From Fusobacteriota bacterium (GTDB lineage Bacteria; Fusobacteriota; Fusobacteriia; Fusobacteriales; JAAYPW01), in assembly GCA_012519615.1 (NCBI GenBank), contig JAAYPW010000115.1:29009-93008 (forward strand): a stretch of DNA of 64,000 bases, written 5' to 3'. A model generated the notes under the pieces. That model was not told the DNA's origin and did not search any database. It was given only the letters and a program-made list of their open reading frames with translations. Below are positions 3,260 through 49,673 of this stretch, in pieces (position 1 is the stretch's first letter; every line of letters begins with the position of its first letter). The position numbers and the translations under genes were made by a program.

Positions 3260-3260
3260 T

Positions 3261-3310
3261 AAAACAAGGATAGCCAGATTTTAGTTGGCTATCCTTGTTT
3301 TATTTTTTTA
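3261..3310 (+). terminator. Rho-independent terminator after glgB
   Basis: Perfect 16-bp stem (3261-3276 pairs with 3286-3301) with a 9-nt loop, followed by ATTTTTTTA. Confidence 0.85.
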
Positions 3311-3914
3311 TAAAAAAATAAAACAATAATTTAGACTTATTAAATCTATATGCAAACAAATTAAATTTTATATATAATTTGTTTCTAATTAATTCATTTA
3401 CTATTTTTGAAAATTATTTTATAATGTTATTTCATGTGATATTTTAATTATAAAAAATTAAATATTTCCGTTTTATTAATGATGCAGATTTATTTTTAGA
3501 TAAAGTTTAATTATAATTGAAAAAAATGACATTATCATTACAATTTTTCTTTATTAATCTACAAAATAAACTTTAGTAAGATTTAGTTTGTACATATTAA
3601 ATTATAAAAAGTCGATATTCTAATTTTAATATTTATAAAATAAAAATATACTTCTAAATTAATATAATGGAAAAAAATTGTAAATAAAATAAAAAATATT
3701 TTAATTACTGATAAACATAGATAAAATTACAGTAGGAAGCACCTATAAAATCAAATGTAAATTTACTGGTAAAACTATTGAATAAAATGAATATATTAGA
3801 TCTTAAAAATTCAGATAAAATAAAATATATAATTAAAAAGAGTTTCCCTGCTAAAAAATTATATCAAGGAGTCTGAATATAATTTAAATTAAAAATAATA
3901 ATTTTCTATAAAAC

Positions 3915-3948
3915 TATATTAACATATATATATATATATGTTAATATA
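3915..3948. repeat. 34-bp perfect palindrome TATATTAAC(AT)8GTTAATATA containing an (AT)8 dinucleotide repeat
   Basis: Read directly. 3915-3923 is the reverse complement of 3940-3948, flanking 16 nt of alternating AT. It ends 4 nt before the putative -35 of mtnN. Confidence 0.8.
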
Positions 3949-3952
3949 TTTC

Positions 3953-3981
3953 TTGAAAAAAGTTGAAATATATCGTATAAT
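3953..3981 (+). promoter_or_regulatory. Putative sigma-70-type promoter of mtnN-folC
   Basis: TTGAAA (3953-3958), 17-nt spacer, TATAAT (3976-3981). Confidence 0.45.
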
Positions 3982-4015: not shown

Positions 4016-4720
4016 ATGATAAAATTGATAGGAATAATTGGTGCAATGCAAGAAGAAATAATAGAATTAAAAAAACAGATTAAAAACATTAAAGAGAATA
4101 CAATGGCAGGTTTTGTATTTTATAGTGGAATTCTAAATAAAAAAGATATAATACTTGTGCAAAGTGGAATAGGTAAAGTAAATTCAGCAATTTGTACAAC
4201 AATATTAATTGAACAATTTAATGTAACAAAAATAATATTCACAGGAGTAGCTGGTGGTGTTAATAATGATTTGAATGTAGGTGATATTGTTATTTCAAAA
4301 GACTTAATCCAACATGATGTTGATGCAACAGCTTTTGGTGCAAAGTATGGACAAATTCCTCGAATGAATCAACTAGAATTTAAGTCTGATATTAACTTAA
4401 TAGAATTAGCTAAAAAATCAGCAAAGGATATATTTACTAATGAAAAAATTGTAGTAGGACGTATATTAAGTGGTGATCAATTTGTAAGCTCAATTGAGAA
4501 AATTAAATGGTTAAGAGATAAATTTAATGGGGATTGTGTTGAGATGGAGGGTGCTTCTGTTGCTCATGTGGCTACACTTTTTAATATACCGTTTGTAGTA
4601 ATTAGATCAATATCAGATAAGGCAGATCACTCTGCAAATATTGATTTTAATAAATTTGTAAATATTGCTGCAAATAATTCTAAAAACATTGTTTTAAAAA
4701 TGTTAGAGATAATGGTATAA
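4016..4720 (+). CDS. mtnN: 5'-methylthioadenosine/S-adenosylhomocysteine nucleosidase
   Basis: Pfs-like sequence: IGIIGAMQEE, GIGKVNSA, FTGVAGG, EMEGASVAHV, RSISDKA. The SD AAAGGA abuts the ATG at 4016, so the in-frame TTG at 4025 (8-nt spacing) may be the real start. Confidence 0.9.
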   Translation: MIKLIGIIGAMQEEIIELKKQIKNIKENTMAGFVFYSGILNKKDIILVQSGIGKVNSAICTTILIEQFNVTKIIFTGVAGGVNNDLNVGDIVISKDLIQHDVDATAFGAKYGQIPRMNQLEFKSDINLIELAKKSAKDIFTNEKIVVGRILSGDQFVSSIEKIKWLRDKFNGDCVEMEGASVAHVATLFNIPFVVIRSISDKADHSANIDFNKFVNIAANNSKNIVLKMLEIMV

Positions 4721-4722
4721 TT

Positions 4723-5961
4723 ATGGATAAATTACTAGAGAAATTATATTCGTATAACTCAAAAGGAATTAAATTAGGTTTAGATAATATCAGAAAAATT
4801 ATGGATAAATTGGGAAATCCACAAAACAATTATAAAATAATACATATTGCTGGTACCAATGGTAAAGGCTCTACTGCATCTATTTTGGAAAATGTATTAA
4901 TAGAAAATTCTTATAAAGTCGGAAAATATACATCACCGCATTTAGTTAAATTTAATGAGAGAATTGTAGTCAATAGAGAGTTAGTAGAAGATTCAGAAAT
5001 AATATATTATTTTAATAAAATTGAAAAAATAGTAAATGATTTGGAAATAGAAGCGACTTTTTTTGAAATTACAACAGCAATAATGTTACAATATTTTTCT
5101 GATAAAAAAGTTGATTGGGCAATACTTGAAACAGGTATGGGTGGAAGATTTGACTCTACTAATATCGTGAATCCAACATTATCAGTAATAACAAATGTTT
5201 CCATAGACCATACTGAATTTTTAGGAGACACAATAGAAAAAATTGCACATGAAAAAGCTGGTATAATTAAAGAAAATATTCCTCTATTTTTTTGCGATGA
5301 TAAAGAAAATGTAAAAGAAATTTTTAAATCATATACTAATTTATATATAGATATTTTAGAAAAATATAATAACCACAGTTATTATTTAGATATGGAAAAT
5401 TACAATACTGTAATAAATATAGATAAAGAAACATACGTATTACCATTATTTGGAGATTTTCAATGTAATAATTTTTTAACAGCATATGGAGTACTTAGAA
5501 GTCTTGGTATATCAAAAGAAAGTATTAAACAGGGAATTAAAAACACTGTTTGGAGTGGCAGACTTGAAATTGTAAAAAAAGATAAAATTAATATTTTTGA
5601 TGGGGCACATAATTTTGATTCAGCAACTAAGTTATGCAATACTATAAAAAAAATGTATAATAAGGATGAAGTTATATTGGTATGTTCAATATTAAAAGAT
5701 AAAGATGTTAAAAAAATATTAGAAATTTTTTCAGACTTTTCAAGTTCTGTTGTATTTACTTCATTAGATTATTATCGTGGAATGTGTGCAAATGAATTAA
5801 AGAATATAGGAAGAGAATTTTTTAGTGAGATATATGTTGAAAATAGCATTCAAAAAGCAATTAATACTGCAAATTTAACAGATAAAAAAGCAGTTGTTTA
5901 TGCTGGTTCACTGTATTTTATAGGTGAATTAAAAAAGGTGATGGTTAATGAAATTAAATAA
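4723..5961 (+). CDS. folC: Folylpolyglutamate synthase / dihydrofolate synthase
   Basis: 412 aa with the Mur-ligase-type P-loop HIAGTNGKGST, plus TSPHLVKFNERI and ETGMGGRFDSTN. Confidence 0.9.
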   Translation: MDKLLEKLYSYNSKGIKLGLDNIRKIMDKLGNPQNNYKIIHIAGTNGKGSTASILENVLIENSYKVGKYTSPHLVKFNERIVVNRELVEDSEIIYYFNKIEKIVNDLEIEATFFEITTAIMLQYFSDKKVDWAILETGMGGRFDSTNIVNPTLSVITNVSIDHTEFLGDTIEKIAHEKAGIIKENIPLFFCDDKENVKEIFKSYTNLYIDILEKYNNHSYYLDMENYNTVINIDKETYVLPLFGDFQCNNFLTAYGVLRSLGISKESIKQGIKNTVWSGRLEIVKKDKINIFDGAHNFDSATKLCNTIKKMYNKDEVILVCSILKDKDVKKILEIFSDFSSSVVFTSLDYYRGMCANELKNIGREFFSEIYVENSIQKAINTANLTDKKAVVYAGSLYFIGELKKVMVNEIK

Positions 5962-13042: not shown

Positions 13043-14618
13043 ATGAAAAAAAAAATTACTAATATTTTATATATTAATAGTATTATTAATTAATGTAGGG
13101 TGTTCTAACAATAATATTAAAGAAAATGAACCTATAAAAGTAGAACCAGCACCGGTAATTGAGGAGAAATATGAGTATAGAAATATCAATGAATATTATG
13201 AAAATGGATATATAAAAGTAGAAAAGGTTTTAAGAGATAATCTATTGCATGGTTTATATACTTCATATTATGATAATGGTCAAATAGAGGAGGAAGGTTT
13301 GTACGAAAATGATAGAAAAACAGGTGAATGGATCACTTATCATTTTAATGGACAAATTGAATCAATATCAATGTACAAAGCAAATAGAAAAATTGGAAAA
13401 TATATATCATATCATGAAAATGGATTTGTAAAAATGAGAGGAATATATGAAAATGGTAAAAAAGATGGACAATTTGTCGAGTATGACGATATGGGCGAAT
13501 TAGCTATAAAGAGTAATTATAAAAATGATAAATTAGACGGGGAATATACATCATATTTCAATAATGGATATATTAAAGAAAAATCTTTTTATATAGACGG
13601 GAAGAAAGATGGCAAATCATTAGTATATTATGATAGTTCGTTAACAAAAATTGAATCTAATTATAAAAATGGAGAATACGATGGTAAAATCACTTCGTAT
13701 CATGCCAATGGTAAAATTAACGAAATTCAAAATTATGAAAATGGGAAAAAACATGGTAAATTTTATAAATATGATGATGATAATATAATTGTTGAAATTC
13801 TTTCATATAAAGATGATTTGTTGCATGGCGAATGTATTTGGTATAAAGATGGGATTGTTCAGAAAAAAATTAATTATAATTCGGGCGTAATAAGCGGTGA
13901 ATACATTACATATATAAATAATAAGTTAAATGAAATTATTACATATGAAAATAATAAGTTAAACGGGAAAAAGACTATTTTTGATGCAAATGGTTCAATT
14001 ACAAGAGAAGTACATTATAAAGATGACCGATTAGACGGTAGAACAATTAATTATTATGAAAACGGCGATGTTAAGGATATTATAACATATAAAAACAATG
14101 TTTTAAGTGGTGATTATATTATATATTATGATAACGGACAAGTTGAAATAATAACACATTATTTAGATGGAATGAAAGATGGTTTAGAAAAATATTTTTA
14201 TTATAGTGGAGTTGTTAAAGAATCAAATAATTATATAAAAGATAAATTGGATGGACTCTCTGCTTCTTTTTATGAAAATGGAATTTATGAATTAAAAATG
14301 AATTACGAAAATGGATTGCTAAACGGAGAATATATATCTTATTACTATGATGGAACAATTAAAGAGAGAAAAAATTATAAAGATGATTTACTAAATGGAA
14401 AAATGGAGATTTTTAATGAAAACGGCAAAATATTAGAGGAAAGAAATTATCTAGATGGTAAATTAAATGGAAATAATTATATATATTCTGTAAATGGAAG
14501 ATTATTAGAGCAAAAACATTATGTAGACAATAAATTAGATGGTGAATGGATAATATACGATAATGATGGGTTTATAGAATCAAGAGTTAGCTTTAGAAAA
14601 GGTGAAAGAGTAGAATAG
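13043..14618 (+). CDS. MORN-repeat (YwqK-like) lipoprotein. The reading frame is broken by an A10 tract directly after the ATG.
   Basis: AAGGAG SD, then ATG at 13043, then A10 (13046-13055). As written the ATG frame stops after 16 codons. The +1 frame reads KKKLLIFYILIVLLLINVGCSNN... (lipobox) and continues without a stop into the listed 13245..14618 ORF, which holds about 19 MORN-type repeats of ~23 aa. Confidence 0.75.
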
Positions 14619-14655
14619 AATTTAAATTATATTGAATAATAAACTGTAGGAGGTG

Positions 14656-14692
14656 AAAGCTGCTAACAATTTATTTTACGTTAGCAGAATTT
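14656..14692 (+). promoter_or_regulatory. Hairpin separating the SD (GGAGGTG, 14649-14655) from the ABC-F start codon (14700)
   Basis: 8-bp stem (14660-14667 pairs with 14680-14687). It can be extended by three A-U pairs (14656-14658 with 14690-14692) across a small internal loop. Confidence 0.45.
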
Positions 14693-14699
14693 AGGTAAT

Positions 14700-16316
14700 A
14701 TGATTATAGTAAATAACTTGAAAATGAATTTTTCAGGAAGGAAACTTTTCGAGGATGTAAATATTAAATTTACACCAGGAAATTGCTATGGATTAATTGG
14801 AGCAAATGGTGCTGGAAAATCAACTTTTTTGAAAATTTTGTCTGGAGATATTGATTCAACAGGTGGAGAGATTGTAGTAGAGAAAAATAAACGAATTGCT
14901 GTATTAAAACAAGATCACTTTGCTCATGAAGAAGATAGAGTTATAGATACTGTATTAATGGGACATAAAAAATTGTGGGATATTATGGTAGAAAAAAATG
15001 AAATTTATGCAAAAGATGATTTCTCTGAAGAGGAAGGTCTAAGGGCAGCTGAATTAGAAGGAGAGTTTGCAGAATTAGATGGTTGGGAAGCAGAAAGTGA
15101 TGCTGAGACAATGCTTACACAACTAGGAATCCCGTCAGAGCTACATGAAAAACTTATGAAAGAATTAACAGAACCAGAAAAAGTTAAAGTATTACTTGCT
15201 CAAACTTTATTTGGGAATCCAGATATTCTATTATTAGATGAACCTACAAACGGTCTTGATATTAAAGCTGTTGTTTGGCTAGAAAATTTTCTAATGGGAT
15301 TAGATGAAACTACAGTTATAGTTGTTTCTCATGATAGACACTTTTTAAATAAAGTATGTACAAATATTGCAGACATTGACTATGGACAAATTAAAATGTA
15401 TGTTGGAAACTATGATTTTTGGTACGAATCGAACGAACTTATGCAAAGATTAATATCAGCAAAAAATAAAAGAATCGAACAAAAGCGTGAAGAATTAAAA
15501 GAATTTATTGCAAGATTTAGCGCGAATGCTTCTAAATCAAAACAAGCAACTTCGAGAAAAAAACTCTTAGAAAAATTACAATTTGAAGATATGCAAATTT
15601 CAAGTAGAAAATACCCATTTATCGATTTTAAACCTGAGCGAGAAATTGGAAATAATTTACTTAAAGTAGAAAATATATCTAAATCAATTGATGGGGTTAA
15701 AATTTTAGATAATATTAGTTTTACAGTAAATCCTGATGATAAAATTGTATTTTTATCAAAAAATGATATTGTTAAAACAACATTATTATCAATTTTATCA
15801 GGTGAATTAGAATCCGATAGTGGTAGTTTCACATGGGGAGTTACAACATCAACAGCATATATGCCAAAAGATAATAATGAGTTTTTTGATAATAATGATT
15901 TAAATCTAATAGATTGGTTAAGACAGTATTCACCGGATCCACACGAATCATTTATACGGGGATTCTTAGGTAGAATGTTATTTTCTGGTGAAGAAGCTCT
16001 TAAAAAATCAAAAGTACTATCTGGAGGGGAAAAAGTAAGATGTATGTTATCAAAAATGATGCTTTCTAATGCAAATGTATTATTATTTGATAACCCAACA
16101 AACCATTTAGATTTAGAGAGCATTACATCACTAAATAAAGCACTTACTAACTTCAAAGGAAGTATTTTGTTCTCTGCACATGACCATGAATTCATTCAAA
16201 CTGTTGCAAATAGAATTATAGAGATTACCCCTAATGGAATAGTCGATAAAATGATGACATACGATGAATATTTAGAAGACGAACAAGTACAAGAAAGATT
16301 ATCCAAAATGTATTAA
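14700..16316 (+). CDS. ABC-F family ATPase (two ABC domains, no TM domain)
   Basis: 538 aa. It has Walker A GANGAGKST, signature and Walker B LLLDEPTNGLD, a second signature LSGGEKVR and LLFDNPTNHLD, and an inter-domain linker. Confidence 0.9.
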   Translation: MIIVNNLKMNFSGRKLFEDVNIKFTPGNCYGLIGANGAGKSTFLKILSGDIDSTGGEIVVEKNKRIAVLKQDHFAHEEDRVIDTVLMGHKKLWDIMVEKNEIYAKDDFSEEEGLRAAELEGEFAELDGWEAESDAETMLTQLGIPSELHEKLMKELTEPEKVKVLLAQTLFGNPDILLLDEPTNGLDIKAVVWLENFLMGLDETTVIVVSHDRHFLNKVCTNIADIDYGQIKMYVGNYDFWYESNELMQRLISAKNKRIEQKREELKEFIARFSANASKSKQATSRKKLLEKLQFEDMQISSRKYPFIDFKPEREIGNNLLKVENISKSIDGVKILDNISFTVNPDDKIVFLSKNDIVKTTLLSILSGELESDSGSFTWGVTTSTAYMPKDNNEFFDNNDLNLIDWLRQYSPDPHESFIRGFLGRMLFSGEEALKKSKVLSGGEKVRCMLSKMMLSNANVLLFDNPTNHLDLESITSLNKALTNFKGSILFSAHDHEFIQTVANRIIEITPNGIVDKMMTYDEYLEDEQVQERLSKMY

Positions 16317-23367: not shown

Positions 23368-24040
23368 TATAATATTAGAATAGCATCTATAAGAAAATAA
23401 TTTTAGATATAATTATTACTAATTATGTATAATATAATATTCGTTTATGGAGAATAATTCTTTTGTATAAAATAGAGGATTAAATTCTTACTATGTTATA
23501 TGGTCTGAGATGAGAAAAGGAGATATCATTATTTCTAAATCATAATATTATTTTAAAAAACAAATTTTAGTAATATAACTAATTATTTATTTTTAAAAGA
23601 ATTTTATAATGATGACTTAATTCAAAATGACGAGCATATAAAGTTTAATTATAAATTTATAAATAAAATCAAAAAAAATAAAATATAAAAAGATTTAGAA
23701 AATAGAAAAGACTTTTTAGGAAAAAGAAATAAACTTATAAATAAAAAATCATATATTGAAAAGAGATAAATAATTCTCTAATAAATAATAATTTTTTATA
23801 GCAATAAGATCTAAAATTATGTAGATTATAGGGAAAAATGAATAACTGATTTTAATTATGATTTATTATCGAATACTTCATTTAAAATTGATTTTAAAAG
23901 AAAACTTACTGACAAATTAATTAATTTTTATTTTAAAAAATTAATTAAAATCTTTAGAAAATAGATAGTAACGGTTATAAAAATAAAAAATGTATAATCA
24001 AAAATAATTGATATATATTAAAAAAAATTATAATTTATAA

Positions 24041-24077
24041 AAGGTGATACTATTTTGTATTACCTTATTTTTTATTT
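24041..24077 (+). terminator. Orphan terminator-like hairpin 45 nt upstream of the dinG-like gene
   Basis: 10-bp stem (24041-24050 pairs with 24057-24066, one G-U pair) with a 6-nt loop, then ATTTTTTATTT. No annotated gene ends here. Confidence 0.5.
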
Positions 24078-24104
24078 GAATTTTACTTTTTAGTATGATA
24101 TAAT
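24076..24104 (+). promoter_or_regulatory. Putative promoter of the JAB-DinG gene
   Basis: TTGAAT (24076-24081), 17-nt spacer, TATAAT (24099-24104). Confidence 0.45.
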
Positions 24105-24119
24105 AAATATGGTGATGAA

Positions 24120-36746: not shown

Positions 36747-37200
36747 CAGTTTATCTCCAATCTTTTTTACTATTTTAACATAAATTTAATAAATTTTAAA
36801 GTATTTAATAATTAAATATAATATTTTATTTAAAATAAGATCAAAATTTATAAATTTTATTAATATTATATAGATGTTAATGTAGTTTTATACGAAAGTT
36901 CTAATTTAAAAAAATAATTTTAATTAGAAAAAAATATTTTTACAATTTAATAATTATGAAATAAAGAATAAAATTATATACATTTCCAAATTCACACCCA
37001 AACATAGAAAATTGGAATTATATTTTTTGTAAGAAAGTTGTGTTTAATTTATTATATTAGAAAAAGTATACATGCTTATTTTAGAATTTATAACAGAATA
37101 AAAAAAACTATAAGATTATATAAAGATATATTTATTAAAAATTAGTAGGTGGTGAATAAAAATAATAAATAAAAAGATAATATACATAATAATATTTTTT

Positions 37201-39540: not shown

Positions 39541-41244
39541 ATGAATTTAAAAAATAAATTTTATATTAACTTTTTTGCAATAGGTATAGTAATATTTTCT
39601 ATTTTATATATTATATTTATAAGAGAAAGTATAGAAAAATATTTAGGCTTTATCTTGTCTTTTTTTATAACATTTGGAGTAATTAATTTTATATTTTTTA
39701 GTAGTATAATAAAAAGAATAGAAAATATTACAAAATATATAAAAGATTTAGGTAATGAAAATGCAAAAAAGATACTTAAAAATGACTCTAAAATATTAGA
39801 TGAGATAGGAGAAATTTCAAAAAATTTAAATATATTTATTGATGATGTGGAGTCAATTGTAGTAGAGTCCAATTTTGTAAGTGAAGAAATCGCAAATAGA
39901 AGTATGGATCTTACTGGAATAATTAATTGTATAATTAGTGGAAAAAATGAAGGAAATAGAAACAATATATCTTCATTAAAAAATCAAACAGAAGACATTT
40001 TAAAAGGGGTAGAAAATCAAACTGCATCTACACAGGAGATATCTGCAAATATAAGTGAAATATCATATAATTTAAATAATTTATCTAAAAATACAGAAGA
40101 AACAATGAAATTTTCAAATGAGACTTTAAATTATGCTAAAATAGGGCGTGAATCACTTGAAGAGAGTTTAACTAGCATTCTATCCGTAGAAGATACTGTT
40201 AAAAAAATTGAAAAAAAATCATTAGAGCTTATAAATTCATCTGAAAAAATAGGAAATATTGTAAGTATGATATCACAAATATCAGAAAGAACAAATCTTC
40301 TATCATTAAATGCAGCAATTGAAGCAGCAAGAGCTGGAGAAGCAGGAAAAGGTTTTGCTGTTGTTGCGGAAGAGGTAAGAACATTAGCTGATAACTCAAA
40401 TAGTGCTTCAAGAGAGATTGAAGACCTTATAAGAGTAATTCAAAACGAGATTAGAGAGGTAACGTCAAGTATTAGAGAAACATATACGAAGGTTGAAAAT
40501 AGTCGTGATAATTTTGGAAATACAAGAGAAAAATTTTTAAATATAGTAAGTAAGGTAGATAGTACAAATGAACAGATTGAAAATATATCTAACTCTATTA
40601 TAGAACAAGCAAAATCTATAGATGAGATTGATATAGTAACTAGAAGTATTGCAGAAAATAGTGAAGAGATTGGTCAACTTTCAACAGAACAAAATATCTC
40701 TTTTGATAATATTGCTAAAGAGTTAAATAATGTTTTAAATTATTCTAAAAAAGTATCTGAAATCTCTTTAGGTTTAAAGAATATAGCAAGTTTTTTCACA
40801 GTAAATCTTAATAAATCAGTAAATGAAAGAACAGATTTGGTAAAATGGAGTGAAAAATTTAGTGTTAATGTAGAGCAATTTGATAATGAACATAAAAATT
40901 TATTAAATATAATAAATAAATTAAATAAAGCAACATTAGAAGGGGAAGGAATTAATTCAGTCAACGAAATACTTGATGAATTAATAGATTATACTGCATT
41001 TCACTTTAAAAACGAGGAGGAATTATTTCAAAAATATAAATATCCAAATTATAAAGAACATAAGAAAACTCATGATAGTATAATCGAAAAAGTTCTGGAA
41101 ATGAAAGATAAGTTTAATGAAAATCCTGATGATGAAAATGTTATTTATGAAATAATGGAGCTTCTAAAAAAATGGATTATAAATCATATATTAGGGACGG
41201 ATAAAAAATATAGTGATTTTTTTAAAAATAAAAAAATTAAATAA
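39541..41244 (+). CDS. Methyl-accepting chemotaxis protein with a C-terminal hemerythrin-like domain (DcrH-like)
   Basis: Two N-terminal TM helices with a minimal loop. The MCP signalling hairpin reads [34 protein letters not shown]-terminal hemerythrin motifs: [43 protein letters not shown]. Confidence 0.85.
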
Positions 41245-41260
41245 TGGAAGGTGGTGTAAA

Positions 41261-41285
41261 AAAACTTAGTATTAAACTAAGTTTT
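41261..41285 (+). promoter_or_regulatory. Hairpin separating the SD (AAGGTGGTG, 41248-41256) from the oxidoreductase start codon (41290)
   Basis: Perfect 10-bp stem (41261-41270 pairs with 41276-41285) with loop ATTAA. No SD lies adjacent to the ATG. Confidence 0.5.
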
Positions 41286-41289
41286 AATC

Positions 41290-42465
41290 ATGAAATATTT
41301 AATAATTGGAAATGGAGTAGCTGGAACAGAAGCAAGTTTAATAATTAAAAAAAATAATGAAAATGCAGATATAACTATAATAGATAGTGAAAAACATCTT
41401 TTTTATTATAGACCTCGTTTAATTGATCACTTAGCAGGAAAAATTGATGACGATAAAATCATTGCACACAAACAAAGTATTTATGATAATAATAATATTA
41501 ATATCATTAAAAATACTGAGGTTGTAAATATTGATATTAAAAATAAAATAGTTATATGTGATGATAATACTACATATAAATATGATAAACTTTTAATTGC
41601 TACTGGCGCATCACCGTTAATTCCATCTGTAGAATTGGAAGATAATCATGGAGTATTTGAATTTAGAGATATAGAAGACTCTCATAAAATACGAGAATTT
41701 TGTACCGAAAATAAAGGGGAATATGCTATAATAGGTGGTGGATTGTTAGGTATTGAAACTGCAAACGCTATTATGCAATTAGGTTGTGATGTAAGGATCA
41801 TAGAATTTTATAATAGAATTTTACCTAGACAATTAGATGAGGAAACTTCAAATCTATTAGAAAAAAAGTTATCTGATAAAGGGATAAAATTTAATTTAAA
41901 TTGTAGTGTAGATAAAATTGAGACAATTCATGAAGAAAATAGTATTAAAAAAAGAATAGTTTTAAAAAATGGGGAGTCAATAGTTGTAAATGGTATAATT
42001 TTTTCTACAGGAATATGTCCTAAAATTGAACTATTTAAACAAATTGGAATTCTAACAAACAGAGGTGTAATTGTAAATGAATTTATGGAAACAAATATAA
42101 AAGATATATATGCTGCTGGTGATATTGCAGAGTTTAATAGTATTATATATGGTTTATGGCTACCTTCAAAAAAACAAGGTGAAATTGCTGGAGAAAATAT
42201 GTCTGGAAATAATAAAAAATTTGAATCAATTCCTATGGAAACAAGATTAAAAGTAACAGGAATAAATCTTTTTTCTGTTGGCGACTTCAACAAAAAATTT
42301 GAAGAGATCAAAACATATGATAACGGAGAATCGTTTAAAAAATATTTTATAAATAATAAAAAATTAGAAGCCGCAATAATTATTGGCGACAATAAATTAC
42401 CGCTAATTGTAGGAAAAGTATTAAATGGTCGTGAACCCCTGGAATCATTATATAAATTAGAATAA
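41290..42465 (+). CDS. FAD/NAD(P)H-dependent pyridine nucleotide-disulfide-family oxidoreductase (rubredoxin reductase / NADH oxidase-like)
   Basis: 391 aa with IIGNGVAGTEAS (FAD site), IIGGGLLGIETA (NAD site), LLIATGASP and YAAGDIAEF. Confidence 0.8.
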   Translation: MKYLIIGNGVAGTEASLIIKKNNENADITIIDSEKHLFYYRPRLIDHLAGKIDDDKIIAHKQSIYDNNNINIIKNTEVVNIDIKNKIVICDDNTTYKYDKLLIATGASPLIPSVELEDNHGVFEFRDIEDSHKIREFCTENKGEYAIIGGGLLGIETANAIMQLGCDVRIIEFYNRILPRQLDEETSNLLEKKLSDKGIKFNLNCSVDKIETIHEENSIKKRIVLKNGESIVVNGIIFSTGICPKIELFKQIGILTNRGVIVNEFMETNIKDIYAAGDIAEFNSIIYGLWLPSKKQGEIAGENMSGNNKKFESIPMETRLKVTGINLFSVGDFNKKFEEIKTYDNGESFKKYFINNKKLEAAIIIGDNKLPLIVGKVLNGREPLESLYKLE

Positions 42466-42479
42466 AATAATTATTATAT

Positions 42480-42515
42480 GGTGTTTGAATTAATTTTCGA
42501 ACACCTTTTTATTTT
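42480..42515 (+). terminator. Rho-independent terminator after the oxidoreductase gene
   Basis: GGTGTTTGAA / TTCGAACACC stem with a 6-nt loop, then TTTTTATTTT. Confidence 0.85.
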
Positions 42516-42585
42516 AAAAAATAAAGAAATATTAAAAAAACTTTGATTTTACTAAATAGATAGGAAAATTATCCGATAATTGTAT

Positions 42586-42655
42586 ATAATATAATATAAT
42601 ATAATATAATATAATATAATATAATATAATATAATATAATATAATATAATATAAT
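42586..42655. repeat. Perfect pentanucleotide microsatellite (ATAAT)x14
   Basis: Counted directly: 70 nt, 14 uninterrupted units. The array creates 13 overlapping TATAAT hexamers. It ends 10 nt before the AGGGAG SD of pseB. Confidence 0.95.
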
Positions 42656-42679
42656 TAATAAAAACAGGGAGTGAATGAA

Positions 42680-43687
42680 ATGTTAAATGGTGCAAATGTT
42701 TTGGTAACAGGCGGAACAGGCTCTTTTGGTAAAAAGTTTATTAACATGGCGTTAGATAGATATGATTTGGAAAGATTAATTATATATTCAAGGGATGAAT
42801 TTAAACAAAGTGAGTTAAAGCAAAATTTAAAAATTAAACTAAGCCCAGAAAAATTTAAAAAATTAAGATTTTTTATAGGAGATGTTCGCGATAAGGAGAG
42901 ACTTTTAAGAGCATTTAAAGGAGTTGATTACGTAATACACGCAGCAGCTATGAAACAAATAACAACTTGTGAATATAACCCCTTCGAAGCTATAAAAACT
43001 AATATACATGGAGCACAAAATGTAATTGATGCTGCAATTGATAGAGATGTAAAAAAAGTAGTAGCACTTTCTACAGATAAAGCTGTAAATCCTATAAATC
43101 TTTATGGCGGAACTAAACTTGTATCTGATAAACTTTTTATCTCTGCAAATGCGTATTCAGGTGGAAATGGGACAATATTTTCAATAGTAAGATACGGTAA
43201 TGTTGCTGGAAGTCGTGGTTCAGTAATACCTTTTTTTAAAAAAATGGTGGAAGATGGTGTAAATGAATTACCCATTACAGATTTTAATATGACTCGTTTT
43301 TGGATAACTCTCGAAGAGGGCGTTGAACTTGTTTTTAAAGCGTTATCTGAATCAAAAGGTGGTGAAACATATATTTCAAAAATACCTTCATTTAAAATAA
43401 CGGATTTAGCATATGCAATAAAAGATAACATTAAATTAAAAGAGATTGGAATACGAGAAGGGGAAAAAATAGATGAAGTTATGATAACGAAAGATGATTG
43501 GAAAAATACATATGAATATGAGAAACATTATATAATTTATCCAAGCTTTGAGTGGTGGAGTAAAAAAAATTTTACAAATGGAGGTATTCAAATTGCAAAA
43601 GATTTTGAATACAATTCGGGAAATAATAAAGAGTGGTTATCAGTGGCCGATTTAAAAAAAGCATTAATAACACTAGAAAAATATTAG
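42680..43687 (+). CDS. pseB: UDP-N-acetylglucosamine 4,6-dehydratase (inverting)
   Basis: Motifs VLVTGGTGSFGK, HAAAMKQI, STDKAVNPINLYGGTK and VRYGNVAGSRGSV (FlaA1/PseB-like). AGGGAG SD lies 8 nt before the ATG at 42680; the listed GTG at 42671 is less likely. Confidence 0.85.
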   Translation: MLNGANVLVTGGTGSFGKKFINMALDRYDLERLIIYSRDEFKQSELKQNLKIKLSPEKFKKLRFFIGDVRDKERLLRAFKGVDYVIHAAAMKQITTCEYNPFEAIKTNIHGAQNVIDAAIDRDVKKVVALSTDKAVNPINLYGGTKLVSDKLFISANAYSGGNGTIFSIVRYGNVAGSRGSVIPFFKKMVEDGVNELPITDFNMTRFWITLEEGVELVFKALSESKGGETYISKIPSFKITDLAYAIKDNIKLKEIGIREGEKIDEVMITKDDWKNTYEYEKHYIIYPSFEWWSKKNFTNGGIQIAKDFEYNSGNNKEWLSVADLKKALITLEKY

Positions 43688-43696
43688 GTGAAAACT

Positions 43697-44542
43697 ATGA
43701 AAATAGGAGTAATTATACAGGCACGTGCAACATCGACACGTTTAAAAGGGAAAATTTTTAAGAAATTACCATATAATTCAGATGTTACAGTTTTAGAACA
43801 AGTAATAAGACGAGTAAAGAGGGTTAATATCGTAAATGAAATAATAATTGCCACAACAATTAATAACGAGGATGATTTTATAGAAATTATAGCAAAAAAA
43901 GAAAATGTTAAAATATTTAGAGGATCAGAATTAAATGTATTAGAGAGATTTTATTTAGCTGCTACAGAACATTCACTTAATGTGGTTGTAAGAATAACTG
44001 CAGATTGTCCATGTATTGATTTTGAAGTTATAGAGGATATAATTATGAATCATATAAATTTAGAAAATGATTATACTTCAAATACTTTGATTAGATCATA
44101 TCCACACGGATTAGATGTGGAAGTCTTTAACTATAGTGTATTAAAAGAGGCATATGAAAATGGAAGAAATAATTATGAGATAGAACATGTAACACCGTAT
44201 ATTTATAAATATAATTCTCATAAATTTAAAATTGGTAATGTTTTAGCGAATAATAATGTAATAATGCCAAACTTAAGAATAACCCTTGATACCGAAGAAG
44301 ATTATACATTATTATGTATAATCTATGATTTTCTTTATAAAAAAAATAATTATTTTAATACTATTGATATAGTAAATTTAGTAAAAAAAAGTGATTATTT
44401 ATTAAATATTAATAAAAATATTGTTCAAAAACAAATATTTGATTCGATTTCTGAAGAATATGCTTTTGCAATAGAGATACTAAAAAAGCAAGATTTATTT
44501 AGAATGATTTTATTTTTGGAGGAGTGTTGGAATGATAGGTAG
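43697..44542 (+). CDS. pseF: Cytidylyltransferase (SpsF/PseF-like; probable pseudaminic acid cytidylyltransferase)
   Basis: MKIGVIIQARATSTRLKGK..., RITADCP and context within the pse operon. The assignment rests on family plus context. Confidence 0.65.
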   Translation: MKIGVIIQARATSTRLKGKIFKKLPYNSDVTVLEQVIRRVKRVNIVNEIIIATTINNEDDFIEIIAKKENVKIFRGSELNVLERFYLAATEHSLNVVVRITADCPCIDFEVIEDIIMNHINLENDYTSNTLIRSYPHGLDVEVFNYSVLKEAYENGRNNYEIEHVTPYIYKYNSHKFKIGNVLANNNVIMPNLRITLDTEEDYTLLCIIYDFLYKKNNYFNTIDIVNLVKKSDYLLNINKNIVQKQIFDSISEEYAFAIEILKKQDLFRMILFLEECWNDR

Positions 44543-45956
44543 ATTATATATTTTAACTGAAGCCGGTGGAACATACGGATATGGACATGTTATACGATGC
44601 AATGAATTATATAAAAAAGCATACAGAAAATCTGATTTAGAACTTGTTTTTTTAGTAGAAGGTGTTGAATTTTCAAATGGTATTATTTCTGAAGAATATA
44701 TAGAAAAATTTAACTGGAAAAGAATTGAATTCATAGAAAAATATATTACAGAAAAAGACTATGTGATAATTGATTCATATAATACAAGCGAAGAGTTATA
44801 TCATGAAATTGCGTTAAGAGCAAAAAAAGTAATATATATAGACGATTATAATAGAATAAATTATCCAAGAGGAATTGTTGTTAATCCGTCATTATATGGA
44901 AAAAAACTTGATTATAAATATGATTCACTTAAGCACTATTTAAGTGGAGATGAGTATATAATTTTAAGAAATGAGTTTTACTATGAGTCAAGAAATAATA
45001 TTAATGATGAAGTAAAAAATATACTAATAACATTTGGTGGAAGCGATATACTAAATTTAACACCACTTATTTTAAAAAAAGTAAATGAAATTTCTCCTAA
45101 TTCAAAAAAAATGGTAGTAATTACTGATAATTTTAAAAATTATGAGAAAATATTAGATTATAAAAATGAAAATACTACAATATTAAAAAATATTACTGCT
45201 AGTAAAATGTGTAGACTAATGTTAGATGCAGATATTGCAATATCTGCAGGTGGACAAACAATATATGAGTTAATAAAAACATCTACTCCGTCAATTATTT
45301 TTGAAGTAAGCTATAATCAAAAGTATAATATAAAAGCACTAGAGGATCTTGGAACAATTTTGAAATCAGATATTGATTTATTTGAGGAAAATTTTAAATT
45401 AATTGAAAATTATGATGTACGAGAAAGTTTTTTTAAAAACTGTAATAAAGTTAATATAAAAAACGGTGCTGAAAATATAATTTTTTCACTATTAACTCCA
45501 GAATTAAAATTGAGAAAAGCTGAAAAAAAAGATATAGATTATGTTTATGAATTATCCAATGAAAAAATTGTTAGAGAAAATTCTTTAAATACGCAAAGTA
45601 TTGAATTTCAAAACCATATTGTATGGTTTAATGAAAAAATTAATTGCAAGAACTTTAAATTTTACATTATATACAACGATAACGATAATTTTCTAGGACA
45701 AATGAGGTTTGAAATAAATAATGATGAAGCAACTGTAAGTATTAGTTTAGCTGAAAAAATAAGAGGAAAAAATAACGGAACTTATGTATTAGAATTAGGA
45801 AAACAAGCTCTATTAGAGGAAAATATAGATATAAAAAAATTAATCTCTTATGTTAAGGAAACTAATATAAGTTCATCAAAATTATTCAAAAAATATGGAT
45901 TTATAGAGGTAGAAAATAAGGATAATATTATAAAATATATCTATGATATAAAATAA
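44532..45956 (+). CDS. pseG: Fusion of a PseG-like UDP-sugar hydrolase and a PseH-like GNAT N-acetyltransferase
   Basis: The N-terminal ~320 aa are GT-B/PseG-like (GGTYGYGHVIRC, ITFGGSD, AISAGGQTIYEL). The C-terminal ~150 aa are GNAT-like (LRKAEKKDIDYVYEL ... GQMRFE ... KKYGFIEVE). Confidence 0.7.
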   Translation: MIGRLYILTEAGGTYGYGHVIRCNELYKKAYRKSDLELVFLVEGVEFSNGIISEEYIEKFNWKRIEFIEKYITEKDYVIIDSYNTSEELYHEIALRAKKVIYIDDYNRINYPRGIVVNPSLYGKKLDYKYDSLKHYLSGDEYIILRNEFYYESRNNINDEVKNILITFGGSDILNLTPLILKKVNEISPNSKKMVVITDNFKNYEKILDYKNENTTILKNITASKMCRLMLDADIAISAGGQTIYELIKTSTPSIIFEVSYNQKYNIKALEDLGTILKSDIDLFEENFKLIENYDVRESFFKNCNKVNIKNGAENIIFSLLTPELKLRKAEKKDIDYVYELSNEKIVRENSLNTQSIEFQNHIVWFNEKINCKNFKFYIIYNDNDNFLGQMRFEINNDEATVSISLAEKIRGKNNGTYVLELGKQALLEENIDIKKLISYVKETNISSSKLFKKYGFIEVENKDNIIKYIYDIK

Positions 45957-45979
45957 TAGGTATTGAAAGGGGGAGGAAA

Positions 45980-46003
45980 TATTTTAGAAAAATTTCTAAA
46001 ATA
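45980..46003 (+). promoter_or_regulatory. Hairpin separating the SD (GGGGGAGG, 45969-45976) from the pseI start codon (46012)
   Basis: Palindrome ATTTTAGAAA AA TTTCTAAAAT (45981-46002), extendable by a T-A pair. No SD lies adjacent to the ATG. Confidence 0.5.
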
Positions 46004-46011
46004 GATTAATT

Positions 46012-47046
46012 ATGAAAATAGGTAATTTTAATCTAAATGATAATATATTTATTATTGCTGAGATGTCTGCAAATCATGGCAAAAATATTAAAATAGCTCT
46101 TGATACAATATATGCAGCTAAAGAATCAGGAGCAAATGCTATTAAAATACAAACTTATACACCTGATACAATTACTATAAATTGTAGTAATGAATATTTT
46201 AAACTAAAACAAGGTACGATATGGGATGGAAAAAATTTATATGAATTATATAAAGAAGCTTATACCCCTTGGGAATGGCATGATGAATTAAAAAAATATG
46301 CAGATAGCATTGGAATAATTTTATTTTCAACCCCTTTTGACAATAGCGCTGTAGATTTACTTGAATCAATAAATGTATTAGCTTATAAAATTGCATCATT
46401 TGAAATTACGGATATTCCTTTAATTAAGTATGTTGCAAGTAAGCAAAAACCGATTATAATTTCAACAGGGATAGCTAATTTAGATGACATACAAAATGCA
46501 GTAGATACATGTAGAGGTGTAGGTAATAATAATATTGCACTTCTCAAGTGTACCTCTGCATATCCTGCTAAAATAGAAGATGCAAATTTAAAAACAATAC
46601 AAAATTTAAAAGAAACTTTTAATGTTGTTTCAGGATTATCGGATCATACATTAGGTATTACTGTTCCAATTGTGTCTGTTGCAATGGGGGCAAGAATAAT
46701 TGAAAAACATTTTATATTAGATAAATCAATTGGTGGACCTGATTCATCTTTTTCTCTGAATAAAGATGAATTTAAATTAATGGTAAATTCTGTAAGAGAA
46801 GCAGAAAAATCAGTTGGAGAGATAGATTATAAATTAACAGAACAAAAATTAAAAAGTAGAGAATTGTCGAGATCTCTATTTGTAGTTAAGGATATAAAAA
46901 AAGGAGAAATTTTTACAAAAGATAATATTAGATCAATAAGACCAGGATATGGATTACCACCTAAATATTATGATGAAATTATTGGAAAAAGAGCTGCAAA
47001 TGATATAAATAGAGGGCTACCTTTAAAATGGAGCGATATAATATAA
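46012..47046 (+). CDS. pseI: Pseudaminic acid synthase (NeuB family)
   Basis: 344 aa with IIAEMSANHG, IKIQTY, KIASFE, LKCTSAYP, SDHTLG and a C-terminal SAF domain (RSLFVVKDIKKGEIFT). Confidence 0.85.
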   Translation: MKIGNFNLNDNIFIIAEMSANHGKNIKIALDTIYAAKESGANAIKIQTYTPDTITINCSNEYFKLKQGTIWDGKNLYELYKEAYTPWEWHDELKKYADSIGIILFSTPFDNSAVDLLESINVLAYKIASFEITDIPLIKYVASKQKPIIISTGIANLDDIQNAVDTCRGVGNNNIALLKCTSAYPAKIEDANLKTIQNLKETFNVVSGLSDHTLGITVPIVSVAMGARIIEKHFILDKSIGGPDSSFSLNKDEFKLMVNSVREAEKSVGEIDYKLTEQKLKSRELSRSLFVVKDIKKGEIFTKDNIRSIRPGYGLPPKYYDEIIGKRAANDINRGLPLKWSDII

Positions 47047-47063
47047 TAGGAGTGTGATTAAGA

Positions 47064-48242
47064 ATGTATATTCCCTACGGTAAACAGTGCATAGATGAAA
47101 AGGATATTGAATCAGTAATTAATGTTTTAAAATCAGACTATTTAACTCAGGGACCTAAGATAAGAGAGTTCGAAGAAAAAGTTGCAAATTATCATGGTGT
47201 GAAATATGCTGTTGCACTATCTAATGGTACTGCTGCATTACACGCCGCATATAAAGTTATTGGTTTAGATGTAGATGATGAATTTATAACAACTCCGATT
47301 ACATTTGCAGCTACTTCTAACGGTGGTCTTTATTTAGGAGGTAAGCCTGTTTTTGTTGATATAGATAAGAGTGATTATAATATAGATGTCACAAAAATAG
47401 AGGAAAAAATAACTTCAAGAACAAAAGTTATTACGCCTGTTTCATATGCAGGATTTCCAGTTAATATGGAAGAGATTAAAAAAATTGCAAATAAATATAA
47501 TTTAAAAATCATTCATGATGCAGCACATGCTATTGGTGCAAGACGAAATGGATACAGTGTATCCGATATTGCAGATATGACGGTGTTATCATTTCATCCT
47601 GTAAAACACATAACTTGTGGTGAAGGTGGCATGATTTTAACAAATAATGAAGAGTATTATAAAAAATTACTTTTATTTCGTACGCATGGTATTACAAAAA
47701 ATATTGATGAAATGGAGGCAAAAGACGGTCCATGGTATTATGAAATGCAAGAATTAGGATATAATTATAGAATTACAGATATACAATGTGCTCTTGGAAT
47801 TACACAGATGGAAAAGTTAAATGGATTTTTATGCAAAAGAAATAAAATCGCAGAATTTTATGATAAAAATCTTATAAAAATGGACTGGATCACAACTCCT
47901 AAATACTTCAATAAAGATTGGATAGATACACCTCTTTATAGTAATTTACATAAAAAACCAAATAATTTATGTTCATATCACATCTACCCAATTTTAATAA
48001 AAAATAAATCTAATAGAAGAGCATTTGTTGAATATATGCGTTCTAGTGGTATTTATGTTCAAGTTCACTATATACCTTTACATTTAATGCCTTATTATAA
48101 AAAACATTTTGGATATAAAGCTGGTGATTTCCCTATTGCAGAGGATTTCTATGAAAGAGAAGTAAGTATCCCTATATATCCTGATTTAACAGAACAGGAG
48201 CTGAATTATATCCTTAATAAAATATATACTTTTAAATTTTAA
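47064..48242 (+). CDS. pseC: UDP-4-amino-4,6-dideoxy-N-acetyl-beta-L-altrosamine transaminase (DegT/DnrJ/EryC1 family)
   Basis: IPYGKQCIDEKDIESV, SNGTAALH, DAAHAIGA and SFHPVKHITCGEGG (PLP lysine). The context is the pse operon. Confidence 0.85.
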   Translation: MYIPYGKQCIDEKDIESVINVLKSDYLTQGPKIREFEEKVANYHGVKYAVALSNGTAALHAAYKVIGLDVDDEFITTPITFAATSNGGLYLGGKPVFVDIDKSDYNIDVTKIEEKITSRTKVITPVSYAGFPVNMEEIKKIANKYNLKIIHDAAHAIGARRNGYSVSDIADMTVLSFHPVKHITCGEGGMILTNNEEYYKKLLLFRTHGITKNIDEMEAKDGPWYYEMQELGYNYRITDIQCALGITQMEKLNGFLCKRNKIAEFYDKNLIKMDWITTPKYFNKDWIDTPLYSNLHKKPNNLCSYHIYPILIKNKSNRRAFVEYMRSSGIYVQVHYIPLHLMPYYKKHFGYKAGDFPIAEDFYEREVSIPIYPDLTEQELNYILNKIYTFKF

Positions 48243-48330
48243 TATATTAAAATATTCATATTATTTGTTATTGAAATAATTAATATAATATGATATAATT
48301 AGTAGGGTTATATATTTTTAGAGAGGGGGA

Positions 48331-48353
48331 TATTGCAAAATATTTTTGCAATA
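48331..48353 (+). promoter_or_regulatory. Hairpin between the SD (GAGAGGGGGA, 48321-48330) and the miaB ATG (48360)
   Basis: Perfect inverted repeat TATTGCAAAA TAT TTTTGCAATA. Confidence 0.45.
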
Positions 48354-48359
48354 AAAATA

Positions 48360-49673
48360 ATGTTTAAAAAAGCAACAATTATTACATATGGATGCCAAAT
48401 GAATGTTAACGACAGTGCAAAAGTAAAAAAAATTTTAGAAAATAATAATTATGAGATAGTAAATGATATTAATAATAGTAATTTAATTATTATAAATACA
48501 TGTACTGTAAGAGAAGGCGCCGCTGAAAAAGTATACGGTAAATTAGGAGAATTAAAGCACTTAAAACTTAGGAAAAAAAATCTTATAATTGGTGTTATTG
48601 GGTGCTTAGCTCAGGAAAAAAAAGACGAAATATATAAAAAAGTACGGCATGTAGATTTTGTTCTTGGAAATCAAAATATTGGAAAAATACCACAACTTCT
48701 TGAAACAATTGAAAATGAAGATGTAAAGCATATTAATTACACTTATGATGAAGATAAATTACCAGATAAAGTATATGCAGATTTTGATTCGAAAATAACT
48801 GCGTATATTTCTATTACATATGGTTGCAACAACTTCTGTACATATTGTATTGTTCCTTATGTACGTGGTCGTGAAAGAAGTGTACCTATAAATGAGGTTA
48901 TTGATGAAATAAATCATTATTTAGATAAAGGATATAAGGAGATATACTTACTTGGTCAAAATGTAAACTCTTATGGAAAAGGATTAGATGAAAATGTTAA
49001 TTTTACAGATTTACTAAAAGAAATATGTAAAATTGATAAAAAATTTAGATTACGATTTATGTCGCCACATCCACGTGACTTCACAGATGAACTTATAGAA
49101 GTTATAAAAAATGAAGATAAAATATGTAAAAATATACATTTACCTATACAAGCTGGTTCAACAGATGTTCTTAAAATGATGAATCGTGGTTATACAAAAG
49201 AGGAATATTTATATTTAATAGAAAAAATAAAAAATAAGATACCAGATATATCTTTAAGTACTGATATTATTGTTGGATTTCCGAATGAGACAGATAATAA
49301 TTTTAATGACACTTTTGATGTTGTAGAACAAGTTGAATTTGACAATTCGTATATGTTTATGTATTCTAAACGTCAAGGTACACCTGCAGCTACAATGGAT
49401 GGACAAATAGATGAATCAGAAAAAAAAGCAAGATTGCAAAAGTTAATTGATTTACAAGCAAAGAAATCAAAATTACAAAATGAAAAATATATTGGAAAAA
49501 TAGTAGAAGTATTAGTAGAAGGTCCTACACCTAAAAATCCTGAAAATTATTCAGGGAGAACAGATGAAAATAAAATTGTAATCTTAAAAAGTGATCAAAA
49601 AAATGTAGGTGAGTTTGTGAAGGTAAAAATATACGACGCTAAAACATGGACATTGTATGGTAAAATAATATAA
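48360..49673 (+). CDS. miaB: tRNA-2-methylthio-N6-dimethylallyladenosine synthase
   Basis: Motifs TYGCQMNVNDS, radical SAM CNNFCTYC and a TRAM domain. A MiaB-typical N-terminus starts at the ATG at 48360. The in-frame TTG at 48333 (listed) is the alternative start. Confidence 0.9.
   Translation: MFKKATIITYGCQMNVNDSAKVKKILENNNYEIVNDINNSNLIIINTCTVREGAAEKVYGKLGELKHLKLRKKNLIIGVIGCLAQEKKDEIYKKVRHVDFVLGNQNIGKIPQLLETIENEDVKHINYTYDEDKLPDKVYADFDSKITAYISITYGCNNFCTYCIVPYVRGRERSVPINEVIDEINHYLDKGYKEIYLLGQNVNSYGKGLDENVNFTDLLKEICKIDKKFRLRFMSPHPRDFTDELIEVIKNEDKICKNIHLPIQAGSTDVLKMMNRGYTKEEYLYLIEKIKNKIPDISLSTDIIVGFPNETDNNFNDTFDVVEQVEFDNSYMFMYSKRQGTPAATMDGQIDESEKKARLQKLIDLQAKKSKLQNEKYIGKIVEVLVEGPTPKNPENYSGRTDENKIVILKSDQKNVGEFVKVKIYDAKTWTLYGKII

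Follow-up and report, generated by a model that had tools for sequence, protein, structure and literature searches.

Putative split ribosome-binding sites, with a perfect hairpin predicted between a distant Shine–Dalgarno sequence and the start codon, at six genes of a Fusobacteriota bacterium

We analysed a 64,000-nt stretch of DNA (hereafter the window; 25% G+C) on contig JAAYPW010000115.1 of a Fusobacteriota bacterium, in which four plus-strand genes carry an unusual leader: a strong Shine–Dalgarno (SD) sequence lies far upstream of the start codon, and a perfect hairpin is predicted between the two. These genes encode an ABC-F family ATPase (ATG at 14700), a flavin adenine dinucleotide (FAD)-dependent oxidoreductase (41290), the pseudaminic acid synthase PseI (46012) and MiaB (48360). 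Several biogas-fermenter metagenomes hold contigs that are identical or 99.7–100% identical to the window, and its MiaB shares 61–64% identity with proteins of Fusobacterium, Leptotrichia and Haliovirga. Split ribosome-binding sites (RBSs) are textbook curiosities, known from two genes of phage T4.

The gene 5′ of pseI (PseG-like plus acetyltransferase) ends at 45956. It is followed by the distant SD of pseI, GAAAGGGGGAGGAAA (45965–45979), whose duplex with the 3′ end of 16S rRNA is predicted at −15.2 kcal/mol; its core GGAGG (45972–45976, within AAAGGGGGAGGAAAT) is separated from the ATG (46012–46014) by a linear gap of 35 nt. Within this gap lies the palindrome ATTTTAGAAA-AA-TTTCTAAAAT (45981–46002), which one further T-A pair extends to a predicted perfect hairpin of 10 bp with a 4-nt loop (45980–46003), single-copy in the 84 kb examined in all, and the leader reads GAAAGGGGGAGGAAA-TATTTTAGAA-AAAT-TTCTAAAATA-GATTAATT-ATG. 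Two in-frame stops (TAG 45985, TAA 45997) lie within the hairpin, which lacks ATG, GTG and TTG, and nothing SD-like stands next to the ATG, where the best adjacent 9-mer duplex reaches −2.4 kcal/mol. With the helix formed, 3+8 = 11 nt would remain unpaired (5–11 nt depending on the SD register). Because 344-aa homologues align end to end with 100% of the protein and the coding sequence (CDS, 46012–47046) passes the NCBIfam PseI model (510 bits versus a cut-off of 340), we take this start codon to be right. A preliminary description of this leader had given the positions of SD, palindrome and ATG, the lack of an SD next to the ATG, the in-frame TAA at 45997 and a shortening of the SD-to-AUG path from 35 to about 11 nt; every one of these points was borne out. 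On one contig of the same organism at 3.3x coverage (ERZ2647912 NODE_252; L089/L131), a 1-nt indel lies just 5′ of the SD of pseI, close to where the preceding gene ends, and the methyl-accepting chemotaxis protein (MCP), pseG-like and rho genes are frameshifted; all of these most likely reflect faulty assembly, not biology.

At miaB, the distant SD AGAGAGGGGGA (48320–48330, −15.4 kcal/mol) lies 30 nt from the ATG, and a perfect 10-bp hairpin with loop TAT (48331–48353, folding z-score −3.7) would leave 1+6 nt unpaired. A promoter-like site, TTGAAA-17-TATAAT with a TG extension (48271–48299, plus strand), is the best promoter match in 41000–48500 (11/12) and would place both SD and hairpin within the 5′ untranslated region. 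The CDS (48360–49673) matches the MiaB model at 540 bits versus 355, and its ATG agrees with the N-termini of homologues: all 12 that we inspected begin M.KKA.IITYGCQMN, that is, at ATG 48360. The homologues listed are 435–441 aa long, bar one 579-aa call, and cover 97–98% of the public 446-aa call.

The oxidoreductase gene (pyridine nucleotide-disulfide oxidoreductase, NirB-N/NorW-like by family matches; CDS 41290–42465) has an adjacent SD of +0.1 kcal/mol and a distant one, GGAAGGTGGTG (41246–41256), of −14.6 kcal/mol at an aligned spacing of 35 nt. The perfect 10-bp hairpin between this SD and the ATG (41261–41285, loop ATTAA) would leave 6+4 nt unpaired, and the N-terminus, MKYLIIGNGVAG, agrees with that of an ortholog, MNYLIIGNGIAG (locus L128). 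The ABC-F gene (CDS 14700–16316) matches positions 1–529 of the ABC-F profile PRK15064, which we take to be YbiT-like, with residues 1–530. Its distant SD, TAGGAGGTGAA (14647–14657, −16.1 kcal/mol), has an aligned spacing of 46 nt and is followed by a perfect 8-bp hairpin, CTGCTAAC/GTTAGCAG, with a 12-nt loop (14660–14687, pair probability ~1.0); a predicted UGAA/UUUA extension of the stem (14654–14657 with 14690–14693) would leave 6 unpaired nt before the ATG. Leader attenuation as in ribosome-protection-type ABC-F genes was considered at 14700 and rejected: the best NCBIfam match is the generic PRK15064, and the leader holds no leader peptide with a standard start.

How exceptional are these leaders? 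We compared the 46 plus-strand genes of the window, with starts set by SDs and homology, and scored an adjacent SD where a 9-mer duplex with the 16S 3′ end reached −7.7 kcal/mol or lower. A canonical adjacent SD is present in 40/46 genes at an aligned spacing of 4–11 nt (median 7), consistent with the earlier statement that nearly every other gene has one. Four of the six remaining genes, with adjacent SD energies of +1.1 to −3.8 kcal/mol, have a strong SD (−10.2 to −15.2) 30–46 nt upstream, well outside the canonical 4–11 nt, and a distant SD of this kind is absent from all 40 canonical genes (Fisher p = 9e-5). The spacers of the four genes contain perfect stems of 8, 10, 10 and 10 bp. Among 35-mers of the whole window, stems of at least 8 bp occur in 1.1% and of at least 10 bp in 0.2%; in the palindrome-rich intergenic-only set the rates are 5.1% and 1.7%, and even under this harsher null the chance that 4/4 spacers carry such stems is ~1e-5 to 1e-6.

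We then scanned formally for the layout (no adjacent SD; an SD of −9 kcal/mol or lower; a stem of 7 bp or more that ends 2–13 nt ahead of the start codon; an open reading frame of 80 codons or more). From the 418 SD-less candidate starts that the window offers on its two strands, the scan picked out the four listed sites and no others. Applied to 20 kb of flanking DNA (10 kb on each side, from contigs of the same organism), it returned two further leaders: that of tsaD (L133:18270–18325), GGAGG-GATTTAT-TGTAAAATAT-TAT-ATATTTTACA-TGAAAAA-ATG, and that of a STAS anti-sigma-factor antagonist (L134:8430–8485), AAAGGGGGGGAG, a 13-bp stem with loop TTA, ACAAGACT and ATG. The total is six sites in ~84 kb and ~61 genes, or ~10% of genes, with stems of 8–13 bp. 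The same scan gave 44 matches in unrelated bacterial loci totalling 1.58 Mb, nearly all with 7-bp stems and only one with 10 bp or more; many of them probably lie at internal codons. As a positive control, T4 gene 38 was the only match in 18.9 kb, once the SD was allowed to overlap the base of the stem. The hairpins are unrelated in sequence, as the preliminary description had noted for the four in the window: each is single-copy in the 84 kb, and pairwise alignment of the six gave one positive score (pseI versus miaB, 9), which we ascribe to AT-richness. The dyad TTAG/CTAA occurs in four of the six stems (14660–14687, 41261–41285, 45980–46003 and that of the STAS gene), so that both arms carry TAG and TAA stop codons; AT-rich DNA may produce this by chance, or it could serve to stop stray translation of the spacer.

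RNA folding of the four window leaders, proposed earlier as a check, predicts every hairpin, with inner-pair probabilities of ~0.9–1.0. Across all spacers, with their perfect 8–13 bp stems, the predicted minimum free energies are −7.0 to −11.7 kcal/mol. In 100-nt contexts the SD core is unpaired with a probability of 0.76–0.95 at ABC-F, pseI and miaB and of 0.27 at the oxidoreductase gene; for the AUG the value ranges from 0.34 to 0.93 and varies with the context chosen. After folding in silico, the unpaired SD-AUG spacing is 4–10 nt in 7/7 cases; the window sites (ABC-F, 6 nt with the extension; oxidoreductase, 10; pseI, 5–11 depending on the SD register; miaB, 7) all lie within the 4–11 nt of ordinary genes. 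Taking the hairpin out of each leader would recreate an ordinary RBS. The six distant SDs are also stronger than 51 canonical ones (median −14.9 versus −10.2 kcal/mol; Mann–Whitney p = 1.6e-4). Such strength argues against decaying relics, and would be expected if anchoring has to make up for a structured spacer.

To what extent is the layout shared by relatives? We compared the leaders of pseI, miaB, oxidoreductase and tsaD orthologs. At 73% amino-acid identity, the miaB gene of L127, a relative represented in samples SRR25909816 and SRR25909831, retains the order SD, hairpin, ATG, with a 9-bp hairpin (GGAGG-AA-ATTACGTAA-AAAAATC-TTGCGTAAT-ATTAAAA-ATG), and the split layout is unambiguous there because no in-frame ATG, GTG or TTG lies between SD and ATG. 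We counted the stem pairs by hand, as a MAFFT alignment of the miaB leaders left the 3′ arms out of structural register. Relative to the window stem (ATTGCAAAA/TTTTGCAAT), six pairs are the same, 3/9 are changed on both sides (G-C to A-U, A-U to G-C and A-U to U.G) and none is broken, while the loop differs in both length and sequence. The miaB leaders of L128 (68%), L138 (64%) and L139 (62%) are canonical, as are those of pseI in L086 (76%, from the same study as L127; GAGGTG-6 nt-ATG, no hairpin), of the oxidoreductase in L128 (AAAGGAGG-5 nt-ATG, no hairpin) and of tsaD in L137 (71%). The proposed test for stem covariation in orthologous leaders, like the other proposed checks that were run, spoke for the earlier interpretation: the miaB stem is kept through double-sided changes. 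At pseI, the oxidoreductase and tsaD the stems are not conserved in the relatives compared, which have ordinary SDs. The canonical leaders in relatives show that the hairpins are derived and that the layout is not under long-term conservation; the miaB hairpin has persisted with compensation, and the split layout as a whole is young and lineage-specific rather than ancient.

Further searches added little to this comparison. The best match to PseI among genome contigs (73% identity) came from unrelated Bacillaceae (horizontal transfer) and provided no orthologous leader, and the best match to the oxidoreductase among metagenome contigs had 38% identity. A protein search with a chimeric oxidoreductase plus TsaD query retrieved no ortholog of the oxidoreductase, its matches being TsaD fusions or assembly chimeras; L137 alone was usable. 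Within the species, 17 contigs from other samples (99.7–100% identity) carry identical leaders throughout, and are uninformative on selection because they are so similar.

What is the role of the hairpins? We consider it probable that the sites are split (noncontiguous) RBSs of the T4 gene 38/25 kind, functionally bridged by the hairpin; the earlier suggestion of a recurrent structure-bridged RBS gains computational support from six genes in ~84 kb. The 30S subunit would anchor on the unusually strong distant SD, the following 23–34 nt would fold as a perfect hairpin looped out of the mRNA path, and the 4–10 unpaired nt left between SD and AUG, as at ordinary genes, would permit initiation at the distant AUG. 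The layout, its statistics, its recurrence and its survival at miaB in one relative are observations; from them we infer that ribosomes initiate by bridging and that the hairpin is required. Such a site may have a recent origin, in a palindrome that arose between a formerly adjacent SD and start codon and was tolerated, or kept, because of its folding. More tentatively, a mutational process of this lineage might repeatedly make perfect palindromes, and those that fall between SD and start might be retained as working bridged sites with extra-strong SDs.

Several observations weigh against bridging. Five of the six compared orthologous leaders are canonical (the three miaB leaders tallied as one), the covariation comes from one sequence pair, and a DNA-level process that keeps palindromes perfect could also produce it. 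Perfect AT-rich palindromes are common between genes, where 5.2 kb holds 17 with stems of 9 bp or more, and the 3/17 that fall in SD-AUG spacers are mildly above the corresponding share of intergenic length (~6%, an estimate). In the 100-nt ensembles, the SD and AUG of the oxidoreductase gene are partly paired (P unpaired ~0.3), and a weak AGGT (14693–14696) stands 3 nt before the ABC-F ATG, with adjacent SD energies of −3.8 to −6.2 kcal/mol. The preliminary description had the exceptions to canonical SDs all sharing one layout; this holds for 14700, 41290, 46012 and 48360 and fails for the genes at 4723, 33867 and ~37160, the last of which encodes a penicillin-binding protein (PBP), as they too are exceptions and lack the SD-hairpin-AUG order. 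Finally, in the tsaD spacer the SD is directly followed by TTG-TAA, and a mini-frame, ATG-AAA-AAA-TGA, ends in a stop that overlaps the main ATG; the start chosen by gene callers for miaB is an in-frame TTG (48333), 3 nt after the SD and inside the stem.

Could the distant SDs be mere relics? In this scenario, this genome makes perfect AT-rich palindromes throughout its intergenic DNA, and some, neutral or mildly harmful, fell between an SD and its start codon. The SD no longer serves, and translation of the gene is weak or independent of any SD, relying on an unstructured A/U-rich start region or on coupling to the gene upstream. It would fit the ordinary adjacent SDs of most compared orthologs, which make the hairpins recent, and the perfection of all stems, which suggests youth; it would also fit the mild enrichment of frequent intergenic palindromes in SD-AUG spacers, and diversity within the species is too low to reveal purifying selection on the leaders. 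However, relics should be average or decaying, and the distant SDs are the strongest in the region; nor would relics account for a residual spacing that is canonical in every case, or for the lack of a new adjacent SD at 5/6 sites. The miaB layout has, moreover, outlasted 27% protein divergence with compensated stem changes, one of them to a U.G pair that forms on the sense strand only. Together these points make relic SDs an unlikely explanation.

Alternatively, and compatibly with bridging, the hairpins may be regulatory or processing sites, such as protein operators, targets of RNase III or another nuclease, or temperature or helicase switches. They lie inside the initiation region and could gate translation, their moderate stability (−7 to −12 kcal/mol) means that small shifts in conditions could alter the folded fraction, and their perfect dyad symmetry would suit dimeric DNA-binding proteins. 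Yet six unrelated, single-copy hairpins do not indicate a common factor, the miaB stem covaries instead of keeping its sequence, and no Rfam 15 family matches anywhere in the 64-kb window at the gathering score. RNA thermometers (ROSE, fourU) are similar in that a local hairpin of the initiation region would set the translation rate through its stability. In thermometers, the SD and/or the AUG is paired, and melting turns translation on; at our sites the perfect stems include neither element, and melting should instead turn translation off, for which reason we rejected this class. We regard a regulatory or processing role as improbable, and the sensitivity of the sites to temperature, helicases or a binding protein, raised in the preliminary description, is speculation.

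A last possibility is that each strong SD serves a nearby start, giving an N-terminal extension or a mini-frame with a rare start codon, and that the main AUG is reached by termination-reinitiation. Besides TTG 48333 and the tsaD TTG-TAA, candidate mini-frames can be read at ABC-F (CTG 14660 to a TAA 1 nt before the ATG) and pseI (ATT 45981 to TAG 46002–46004), and an apparent need for ATA or ATT as the start of the PBP gene (~37160) suggests that this organism may use rare start codons. At miaB, the candidate N-termini are MFKK... and MQNIFAIKIMFKK...; the public call (446 aa, P0121) owes its longer form to a nine-residue extension, MQNIFAIKI (48333–48359), seen in no homologue, and the 3-nt spacing of TTG 48333 is below the 4–11 nt range of the 40 canonical genes. 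On these comparisons, we judge ATG 48360 to be the main start, with some initiation at TTG 48333 possible; the extension was probably added in error by gene callers misled by the displaced SD. Nearby starts are very improbable as a general account: the candidates share no pattern, four spacers out of six (ABC-F, oxidoreductase, pseI and STAS) contain no ATG, GTG or TTG and have in-frame stops parting the SD from the reading frame, those of the oxidoreductase and STAS genes offer no plausible start at all, TTG 48333 has no equivalent in L127, and the ever-present perfect hairpin is left unexplained.

Two other classes were rejected outright. Intrinsic terminators or attenuators do not fit, as the hairpins have no U tracts (their tails are GATTAATT, AATC, AAAATA and AATTTAGG) and the real terminators of the window carry T runs; a terminator scan of 41000–48500 did not list the oxidoreductase, pseI or miaB stems, and the ABC-F tail was read from the sequence. 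Repeats akin to repetitive extragenic palindromes (REP) or miniature inverted-repeat transposable elements (MITE) do not fit either, each hairpin being single-copy in 84 kb with up to 3 mismatches allowed; the second match of each hairpin at this threshold we read as the palindrome itself on the other strand.

Split RBSs as such have a precedent in T4. In gene 38, RNA structure brings an SD-AUG distance of 22 nt to 5 nt, as the preliminary description had stated without the figures, and destabilising mutations lower initiation (PMC3014915); in gene 25, the split RBS of Nivinskas (1999) and of Malys and Nivinskas (2009), a hairpin brings 27 nt to 11 nt, and mutational and probing evidence exists for both genes (PMC3014915; PMC7297116). 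The gene 38 leader, AAGGAG-AGAGGGGC-UUCG-GCCCUUCU-AAAU-AUG (22 nt from SD to AUG), has the same order of SD, hairpin, a few unpaired nt and AUG, and is found by the same scan once overlap with the SD is permitted. It differs in its stem, which is short and GC-rich with a UUCG tetraloop (~20 nt) and overlaps the end of the SD, whereas the hairpins described here are 23–34 nt long, AU-rich, perfect and clear of the SD. Gene 25 offers a parallel in distribution: its layout occurs in close T-even phages and is absent from more distant relatives, pointing to a derived insertion (PMC3014915), just as with miaB, which has the split form in the window and the 73% relative and the canonical one in the relatives at 68%, 64% and 62%. 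The gene 25 site is a phage intercistronic junction with reporter and dimethyl sulfate (DMS)-probing evidence, in contrast to our sites, which are known from sequence alone; and T4 is a phage with two isolated cases, compared with six in ~84 kb of bacterial chromosome.

Among cellular mRNAs, Escherichia coli rpmE and thrS tolerate a stable hairpin inside the ribosome-binding region, or use it to arrange the elements (PMC7297116), a likeness that we draw from the description only. These hairpins are part of autoregulatory operators and are presented as distinct from the T4 38/25 layout (PMC7297116). Neither the T4 review nor the E. coli rpmE study describes the layout as recurrent in a cellular genome (PMC3014915; PMC7297116), and our literature search, which missed most subscription journals, turned up no account of it. 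While the mechanism is already known, what appears to be new is its organism-wide recurrence at ~10% of genes, in cellular chromosomal genes and with unusually strong SDs.

With six cases in ~61 genes, this organism would offer a natural collection of split RBSs in which to ask how large a loop-out between SD and P site the 30S subunit can accommodate, what gain in SD strength this requires and how split sites are born. Gene finders mis-call such starts, as with miaB, called 9 codons too long, and scoring split-RBS genes as SD-less biases statistics of SD usage. If palindromes that fall between SD and start are indeed retained as working bridged sites, ~10% of genes, including the translation-related miaB, tsaD and ABC-F, would share helix-dependent translation control, and heat, helicases or the timing of transcription and translation could turn the sites down together, the reverse of RNA thermometers. 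Split sites also suggest compact designs for structure-dependent translation control.

Three genes without a normal pair of SD and start lie outside the split layout. The folC-like gene at 4723 (region 4690–4723) has neither an adjacent nor a distant SD and no hairpin, and is probably translationally coupled because it starts 2 nt past the upstream stop. An open reading frame of 667 aa, called from ATG 33867 and open from 33741, is likewise devoid of an SD, whether adjacent or distant, and of a hairpin. The PBP gene has a strong SD, AGGTGGTGA (37146–37154), and the next ATG, GTG or TTG is TTG 37201, at which a start would truncate the transmembrane helix IIYIIIFFLVVISSFGIHLYY. We rejected it as a further split RBS, as the spacer from the SD to TTG 37201 has no significant structure (z = +0.85); a start at ATA or ATT around 37162–37165 seems likely.

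Two gene-free regions of the window are rich in palindromes or AT. A 765-nt gene-free stretch after glgB (3258–3973) contains perfect palindromes with stems of 19, 14, 10, 9, 15 and 9 bp, including a TA-repeat-centred palindromic 34-mer at 3915–3948, and the gene-free AT-rich stretch 23368–24119 contains a 13-bp palindrome. Elsewhere, a lipoprotein gene (signal MKKKLLIFYILIVLLINVGCS) has an ATG at 13043 followed by a poly-A run (13043–13056). At A10, as in the window and in L135 (L135:21973), the run puts the ATG out of frame; at A9, as in L134 (L134:21924) and L136 (L136:14152), it gives an intact 524-aa protein. The difference suggests phase variation of the homopolymer, or else an assembly error.

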